Shown here: one piece after another, positions 20,556 to 21,006 of the stretch
Layout: each line of letters opens with the position of its first letter
How positions within the stretch are numbered: the stretch's first letter is position 1
Assembly: GCF_964194025.1 (NCBI RefSeq)
Contig: NC_134474.1
Coordinates: forward strand, 41,850,001-41,914,000
Length of the DNA: 64,000 nt
Source of the DNA: Convolutriloba macropyga
Lineage: Eukaryota
Direction: 5' to 3'
Position numbers and translations under genes: made by a program
The notes under the pieces: generated by a model
What the model was told of the DNA's origin: nothing
The model's database searches: none
What the model saw: the letters and a program-made list of their open reading frames with translations, nothing else

Positions 20556-20912
20556 AGAGCGATCGCTCTATTACCTAACTAACCGTCTAGCGATTTTAAA
20601 CACGCTAGACCCCAATCCGAGCTCAATGCTCAACGGTACAGGCAACTCTGCCAACTATAACTAATCCGAGCCGCTTGCTCGATCGAATAACGCAAGTTCC
20701 AGAACCTCTCGCTCACTTGCAACAGCGATCGGTGATCAGTAACGTAACTAAACCGCAAAGACTACTCAGAGCTTCTCGCTCAATCAAATCAGGCAAAACT
20801 CGCTAAATAACTCTAATTCTGTAACAGCGACTATTCAGAGCTTCTCGCTCAATCGCTCCGGCAAAGTTAAACGCAACGACGCTTAATAACGATTAACCAG
20901 AGCCTCTCGCTC
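20556..20912 (-). repeat. Array of seven GAGC-N4/5-GCTC hairpin units in the LTR (copy at 33841-34197)
   Basis: Units at ~20557, 20619, 20668, 20702, 20769, 20838 and 20900, separated by largely non-repeated spacers. Confidence 0.75.
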
Positions 20913-21000
20913 AATAATACCGGCAAACTATGCCAAACAATCGATAATTAACTCGTTCACGATTTGCAACTTCTGCGCTGCGCTTATAGTGTAAGCCGAT

Positions 21001-21006
21001 TTTATA
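21001..21006 (-). promoter_or_regulatory. Putative LTR TATA box (TATAAA on - strand; copy at 34286-34291)
   Basis: tttata on + strand, positioned just upstream of the hairpin array in element orientation. Confidence 0.45.

Follow-up and report, generated by a model that had tools for sequence, protein, structure and literature searches.

A hairpin array of seven units in the long terminal repeat of a Ty3/gypsy retrotransposon, probably a protein-docking module in the element's RNA

The locus described here raises the question why a retrotransposon carries the same short hairpin seven times downstream of its promoter, and whether these hairpins act in the RNA of the element or in its DNA. A first-pass annotation of the window (the whole stretch of 64,000 nucleotides that was analysed) had reported seven GAGC-loop-GCTC units at distances of 34-69 nt with largely unique spacers, GAGAR loops in the four units closest to the promoter and another hairpin interleaved between the units, and had likened the array to TAR, RexRE and boxB. 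All seven units were found again at the coordinates reported for them on the minus strand (Table 1), and the spacing from U1 to U7 (62, 69, 67, 34, 49 and 63 nt), the loops of the first four units and the interleaved hairpin likewise proved correct.

Table 1. Coordinates of the hairpin units, the signals around them and the parts of the host element in the window
Feature	Position	Strand	Remarks
U1 hairpin	20900-20912	-	GAGC-GAGAG-GCUC; about +65 from the putative start near 20976
U2 hairpin	20826-20857, core 20838-20850	-	loop GAGAA; lower stem of 6-7 bp, 5-nt 3' bulge
Hairpin unit U3	20769-20781	-	GAGC-GAGAA-GCUC; seldom formed in predicted minus-strand folds
U4 hairpin	20691-20721, core 20702-20714	-	loop GAGAG; lower stem of 6-7 bp, 4-nt 3' bulge
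Hairpin unit U5	20667-20681, core 20668-20680	-	loop AAGCG; 5-bp stem
U6 hairpin	20618-20632, core 20619-20631	-	loop AUUGA
U7 hairpin	20556-20569, core 20557-20568	-	loop GAUC; all 14 nt self-complementary
Second hairpin type GGCA-UAGUU-UGCC	20920-20936	-	5' of U1
Second hairpin type GGCA-GAGU-UGCC	20641-20652	-	5' of U6
Degenerate second-type hairpin	20792-20804	-	ahead of hairpin unit U3; relatives have C at 20804, which pairs
Single 8-bp hairpin GTCTAGCG	20585-20610	-	between U6 and U7
TATAAAA	21000-21006	-	the LTR has no other TATAAA on this strand
Three AATAAA signals	20167-20261 (at 20261, 20228, 20172)	-	only ones downstream of the TATA box
ATG-free, G+U-rich stretch	20152-21051	-	putative long R and short U5; 5' leader and 3' UTR
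3' LTR	20152-23234	-	3083 nt, TG...CA; adjoins target duplication AGTAG at 20147-20151
5' LTR	33437-36521	-	3085 nt; 24 differences from the 3' LTR; second array copy
Primer-binding site	33063-33080	-	starts with TGG
Polypurine tract	23237-23246	-	just ahead of the 3' LTR
Internal region	23235-32974	-	gag, protease-RT-RNase H-integrase, env-like and further frames
GTGAGT donor-like site	32985-32990	-	16 nt ahead of the gag ATG (32974); putative splice donor
178-aa ORF	23863-24399	-	no known family; between env-like frames and 3' LTR
82-aa basic ORF	22818-23066	-	U3 region, strand of gag-pol; predicted helical; 14 matches in a representative library, 40-84% identity
146-aa antisense ORF	21772-22212	+	U3 region; 15 relatives, 49-95% identity
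152-codon antisense frame	22265-22723	+	U3 region; OTU-like by a language-model lead only

The array is real and far beyond chance. Six strict units lie within 451 nt, whereas in 2,000 dinucleotide shuffles no 4-bp stem occurred more than three times, a number reached once, and the array is present in both 3.08-kb LTRs, the other copy being located at 33842-34197. Spacers are mostly unique, with one of 15 spacer pairs clearly alike (1/200 shuffles; next best pair 13/200), and 19 identical nucleotides are common to the hairpin units U2 and U3. Two features had been overlooked in the first reading: a second hairpin type, GGCA-loop-UGCC, recurs 9-10 nt ahead of U1 and U6, and the lower stems of U2 and U4, which differ in sequence, are both paired and both carry a 3' bulge of 4-5 nt. 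One U-G pair in the U2 hairpin pairs on the minus strand only. Both hairpin types have loops of 4 or 5 nt. The self-complementarity of U7 is not special, since the window contains ten perfect palindromes of 14 nt, two of which are U7. A search of Rfam over 19800-23400 with E values up to 5 gave no real match (two chance hits, both outside the array), no hammerhead or K-turn core was seen by eye in the sequence, and no description of such an array was found in the main texts searched, which come mostly from openly accessible literature.

The host of the array is a young Ty3/gypsy LTR retrotransposon of an animal with an env-like frame, located on the minus strand. The LTRs with their TG...CA ends, the target duplication, the primer site and the polypurine tract are those of a Ty3/gypsy element, as is the order protease, RT, RNase H and integrase found with Pfam. 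We take the primer-binding site to resemble the 3' end of tRNA-Asn. The env-like frame that follows pol fits a glycoprotein F-type env in its position, its signal-like start, an RSKR site and a hydrophobic stretch; a full-length relative had no match in Pfam or PDB. For the zinc knuckle of gag, Pfam gave a weak match (E 0.0022). Bel/Pao elements are metazoan, and the presence of one in the same window points to an animal host. Stops and frame changes interrupt the internal coding region of the present copy. An insert at 33082-33436 separates the 5' LTR from the primer site; it holds 285 nt duplicated from the flank 19867-20151, with 10 differences, and 78 nt of extra LTR end. As in a solo LTR, AGTAG is present at either end of the 5' LTR. 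The insert would be a local rearrangement or an assembly merge of two haplotypes. It contains six ATGs, thus the own leader of the present copy is disrupted.

For the function of the array it is important whether it is transcribed. Counted by convention from the TATA box, transcription would start near 20976. Since there is no ATG downstream of the TATA box and the poly(A) signals are located only near the end of the LTR, the array would be part of the transcript and of a 5' leader scanned from near the TATA box. On the minus strand, the ATG count in 20152-21000 is 0 where 11.8 +/- 2.7 are expected, a value reached by 0 of 2,000 shuffles; the array part alone has 0 against 6.2 expected (1/2000 shuffles). 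The controls are normal, with 3 ATGs against 5.8 expected on the plus strand and 9 against 12.5 expected in the proximal U3 region. The ATG-free gaps of both LTR copies, at 930 nt, are the longest of the window on either strand, and the segment from the primer site to the start of gag is free of ATG as well. R is in addition G+U-rich (0.586 compared to 0.47-0.50), and the array region has a CpG o/e of 1.62. Thus, R is probably 720-825 nt long and doubles as AUG-free leader; if the start lies where convention puts it, the array spans about +65 to +420. A location within R, downstream of the TATA box as the first-pass annotation proposed, is the most likely one. Only about 90 nt lie between the primer site and gag; almost all of the 5' leader would therefore come from R, and leader signals for Gag must sit in R or in gag itself.

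Some further structures and words are located close to these signals. A hairpin of 11 bp (21012-21036, minus strand) lies immediately upstream of the TATA box, and farther upstream four GTAAACA words (21032-21402, minus strand) presumably resemble Forkhead sites. At the other end lies a hairpin (20172-20201, minus strand) whose final base is the initial A of the last AAUAAA; in most relatives a change at position 20200 preserves this pairing, in the form of G-U, on the element strand. This hairpin might mask the poly(A) signal.

To decide between RNA and DNA, the two strands have to be compared. Folding with G-U pairs gave z values of -0.79 and -0.97 for the minus strand and -3.0 to -3.3 for the plus strand, whereas hairpin enrichment without G-U pairs was the same on both (z -3.7 on minus, -3.5 on plus); the signal therefore consists of strand-neutral palindromes on a G+U-rich minus strand. 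In local folds of the minus strand the cores of U1 (0.22) and hairpin unit U3 (0.25) pair poorly, and in a fold of full R the values are 0.08 for hairpin unit U3, 0.30 for U4 and 0.49 for U2. Over all minus-strand predictions, core pairing is good for U6 and U7, poor for hairpin unit U3 and model-dependent for U1, U2 and U4.

Substitutions in relatives of the element paint a different picture of the strands. The relatives are contigs of four public runs aligned at 80% likeness, which are silent on start, end and strand, and the differences listed are 40 of 621, from few contigs. Among these 40, 22 are located in R, 13 of them at sites predicted to be paired on the minus strand, and ten of the 13 retain pairing (null 0.34, p 0.002). 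Pairing was retained at two of eight sites on the plus strand and at one of six in the U3 region on the minus strand (Fisher p 0.029 and 0.024 against minus-strand R). With two alternative folding windows the values were 11/15 and 6/8, so the pattern is stable over three windows. Under a null of transitions only, 10/12 were retained, which is not significant (p 0.10). Wobble-type transitions occurred at eight of ten Watson-Crick sites but at only one of five unpaired sites (p 0.047). The informative variant sites lie mostly in helices beside the units and not in the cores. For the lower stems, cognate flanks paired better than permutations (p 0.0075), but they did so on the plus strand as well (0.013); p was 0.057 with other flank lengths, and shuffled flanks were not beaten (64/500).

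The wobble pair of U4 had been regarded in the first-pass annotation as an argument for RNA structure. The G-U pair is real in the present copy and forms on the minus strand only. However, all depth in all four runs has G at 20704, giving G-C in U4; the wobble is thus private to the present copy and the argument fails. Nor do single wobbles consistently favour one strand: at 20804 the present copy has a private change that gives a wobble pair on the plus strand. The 24 post-insertion differences between 5' and 3' LTR are uninformative, as none is located in a core where about one would be expected. Taken together, the strand-specific tolerance of substitutions suggests that the RNA of the element strand is structured, and we consider it rather probable that the array acts as RNA. 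The structure claimed for the transcript is hence favoured by the retention of pairing, while the wobble does not speak for it and several units fold poorly.

If the array does not act as RNA, its units could be palindromic sites in the DNA 3' of the promoter, with a role as enhancer, insulator or anti-silencing element. Such sites might be recognised by a host factor that binds as a dimer, or by a protein of the element, for instance the product of the 146-aa ORF. For this ORF Pfam reports an integrase zinc-binding-like domain (E 1.8e-5, just below the curated cut-off), which makes it a candidate DNA binder by sequence. The symmetric cores with a spacer of 5 nt in six of seven units would suit such sites, as would the equal enrichment on both strands without G-U pairs, the loss of the U4 wobble as a family trait and the CpG richness of the region. 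In plants, the LTRs of Sirevirus elements carry about seven palindromes with arms more conserved than the centre and in variable number (PMC4728375, excerpt), which is similar to the situation here. These are Copia elements, however, with longer arms, and their palindromes are located in U3, 5' of the TATA box (same excerpt), whereas the present array is located 3' of it. DNA sites would also need neither bulged lower stems nor a second hairpin type nor loops of variable length, the distances of 3.2-6.6 helical turns are out of helical phase, and substitution tolerance should not differ between the strands as it does. Thus, we regard DNA sites as an improbable explanation.

The explanation that agrees best with these data is a docking module in the RNA: the array is probably a multi-copy site to which a protein binds in the element's RNA, with Gag as first and the 82-aa protein encoded in the LTR as second candidate. 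Transcription would start near 20976, and an R of 720-825 nt would form nearly the whole 5' leader. On the element strand this leader might fold into a string of short hairpins, in which the number of copies would be additive. The gains and losses of blocks among subfamilies that joints in contigs indicate would agree with this. The zinc knuckle of Gag could then read the purine-rich loops and the self-complementary U7, and Gag might in this way select and dimerise the genomic RNA for packaging, by analogy with Ty1. Ty1 dimerises via the palindromes PAL1 and PAL2 in its 5' UTR (PMC6844567, excerpt), and the region studied here would, like the packaging and dimerisation domains of Ty1 and retroviruses, be a structured leader that precedes gag in an LTR element and contains palindromes as well as short hairpins (same excerpt). 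It differs in repeating one stem word seven times, in the variable copy number and in the length of R; U7 would offer a palindrome of 14 nt, but one of ten such in the window. If the donor-like GTGAGT at 32990 were used, spliced RNAs could carry the array as well, and this disfavours a role in selective packaging. We therefore name Gag as putative ligand with reserve; it may well be another protein.

The second candidate ligand is the 82-aa protein, for which the hairpins would be an RNA response element: its basic helix would load on the hairpins and promote elongation, export or stability, and promoter, response element and regulator gene would all be located in one LTR. The ORF is conserved (Table 1), K or R is retained at 12 positions within residues 7-52 of the alignment, and a long helix is predicted (pLDDT 77). 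Several of its relatives were found on contigs whose length equals that of contigs carrying relatives of the 146-aa protein, which fits the location of both in an LTR; contigs with relatives of the LTR ORFs reach 588 kb. If the donor is used, the array would be present on all transcripts. The summed contig depth peaks over the TATA box, U1 and U2 as well as at the LTR end, although depth does not equal copy number. Furthermore, a Gypsy element encoding an export regulator is already known, namely Cer1 with CERV, but this is a large multi-domain protein made from a spliced mRNA, unlike the 82-aa ORF (PMC10309623, excerpt). Its composition (13 R, 9 K, 12 D+E) gives the protein a mixed charge, Cys is absent, and searches in Pfam, PDB sequences (best E 0.19), Foldseek and the Atlas gave no match. 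A prediction of a two-copy complex gave no usable answer (score 0.01), and a bZIP-like reading was dropped, there being no clear heptad signal. The array begins with U1 near +65 and extends to +420, whereas TAR occupies +1 to +59, where its bulge is read by Tat (PMC10970485, excerpt). What connects the protein with the hairpins is the common location in the LTR. The Arg-rich protein put forward as ligand in the first-pass annotation is thus conserved, basic and predicted to be helical, but does not have a compact motif of the Tat/Rev type, and we consider a response element for it unlikely.

Hairpins might also arise without any ligand, as by-product of an AUG-free scanned leader in which slippage of the reverse transcriptase has copied a short palindromic word. 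In contigs of the relatives, one joint leads from 20786 back to 20653 via 17 letters forming a hairpin of the second type, another jumps from 20607 to 20818 and has 59 other letters at the junction, and a third steps back by 41 nt at 20857; blocks thus appear to have been gained and lost, and the number of units appears to vary among subfamilies. Such gains and losses are what slippage would produce, as are the identical nucleotides of U2 and U3, and the element strand does not fold better than its shuffles. However, the cores are intact while the spacers have diverged past recognition. In one stretch of a subfamily seven listed differences are located in the 28-nt spacer 20727-20754, and the sole listed core change gives G-C; damage to cores was found in none of the 40 of 621 differences listed, and two-sided compensatory changes were likewise absent among these. 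A by-product is accordingly quite unlikely. Very unlikely is a platform for host RNA-binding proteins (for example readers of UAG(U) of the type that we assign to Musashi) that would adjust translation or RNA stability in germ or stem cells, which is conceivable because R is both 5' leader and 3' UTR and would fit the G+U richness of R, the 13 UAGUU (3.4 expected; 20152-20980, minus strand) and the 14 (G/A)U1-3AGU (6.1 expected, 2/2000 shuffles) in minus-strand R but not in the U3 region, whereas the motif was chosen post hoc, could result from the G+U richness and is found outside the GAGC units, namely in the spacers and the hairpins of the second type.

Similarities to viral RNA elements exist, but the array does not belong to any of those to which the first-pass annotation had likened it. 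The upper stem GAGC/GCUC matches, as we assume, that of HIV-1 TAR, and like TAR the array is located in R 3' of the TATA box, shows a stem-bulge-stem arrangement in U2 and U4 and has a small basic protein encoded nearby. In contrast to TAR, it does not lie at the very 5' end, counted from the start given by convention; its bulges are located on the 3' side and predicted only under U2 and U4, whereas the U-containing bulge of TAR is on the 5' side; its seven units are dispersed, compared to one hairpin in HIV-1 or up to three in HIV-2/SIV; and the 82-aa protein is not Tat-like. The boxB element of lambda requires a GNRNA pentaloop and a closing U-A pair (PMC12027372, excerpt). A short stem, a purine pentaloop starting with G and a helical basic candidate ligand recall this element. 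Of the seven loops only two (GAGAA) are GNRNA, and GAGAG retains the G and the purine while lacking the final A. The closing pair is C-G in all seven units, and the context is that of eukaryotic Pol II. RexRE, RcRE and RmRE (from HTLV, HERV-K and MMTV) each form one large stable folded domain in an LTR part that is present on all transcripts. The array too would be located in such a part, and a regulator encoded by the element is putative, but it consists of local hairpins and no single long domain is predicted for the element strand. Membership of TAR, boxB or RexRE thus fails on position, side of the bulge, closing pair and single-domain fold, together with the result in Rfam. The array may work like a packaging signal or a viral response element, while standing outside all named families by the features compared.

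Env-bearing Gypsy elements with the order gag-pol-env are widespread in invertebrates, and the present element resembles these errantiviruses in the wide sense in gene order and animal host (PMC13524379, excerpt). It differs from them in its LTRs of 3.08 kb with three ORFs and in the hairpin array; in the main text of that paper the words accessory, stem-loop and OTU are absent. Extra ORFs are common in LTR elements of rotifers (PMC5408684, excerpt). It is unusual for an LTR to span 3 kb, to contain three reading frames and to include an R of about 800 nt. For the third of these frames, the OTU-like lead comes from a language-model cluster with 19% OTU members; Pfam gave no match and the single-sequence fold was unusable (pLDDT 36). 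Conceivably, though with a low probability in our view, a regulatory circuit contained in the LTR has evolved in an invertebrate Gypsy lineage independently of complex retroviruses, with a promoter, a tunable hairpin array in a long R, the gene for the small basic protein binding it and two antisense accessory genes.

Beyond a few model elements, cis-acting RNA signals are poorly described in LTR retrotransposons of animals. The candidate site found here is a hairpin of 13 nt present seven times, and both candidate ligands, the Gag knuckle and the 82-aa protein, are small. If the 82-aa protein binds, a pair of protein and RNA like those of Tat and Rex would have arisen in Gypsy and would be carried by every solo LTR; if Gag binds, the array would be a multivalent packaging signal located in R.

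Searches for the hairpins in other sequence collections returned little. A pattern search of viral contigs for DNA of relatives gave ten single chance matches only, and no such DNA was found in viral contigs by protein search or in genome contigs. In metagenome contigs the two-unit pattern was present at two loci only, in unrelated bacterial-looking DNA. There (L011, 2270-2390; L012, 4990-5110), two intergenic repeats with 70-nt spacing contain the 13-nt hairpin word of U1, by convergence or chance. Within the LTR, a word of about 50 nt at 21678-21730 has very high contig depth with other flanks and is common to another abundant repeat.

The window contains several other repeats. The Bel/Pao element (44824-54983) has LTRs that are 96% alike, and ahead of its ORFs four repeats with a period of about 160 nt (46450-47012) and a 54-nt tandem repeat (47072-47247) are located. 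A Copia element at 6204-11666 also has LTRs that are 96% alike. At 2763-4663 a 670-nt tandem duplication with palindromes of 80 nt is followed by inverted arrays of an 11-nt word, similar to MITEs, and nested duplications with a period of 0.5-1.7 kb are found at 57463-61830. A run of 509 N lies at 40170-40678, and a single-frame ORF of 779 aa on the plus strand (15695-18034) encodes ankyrin repeats.
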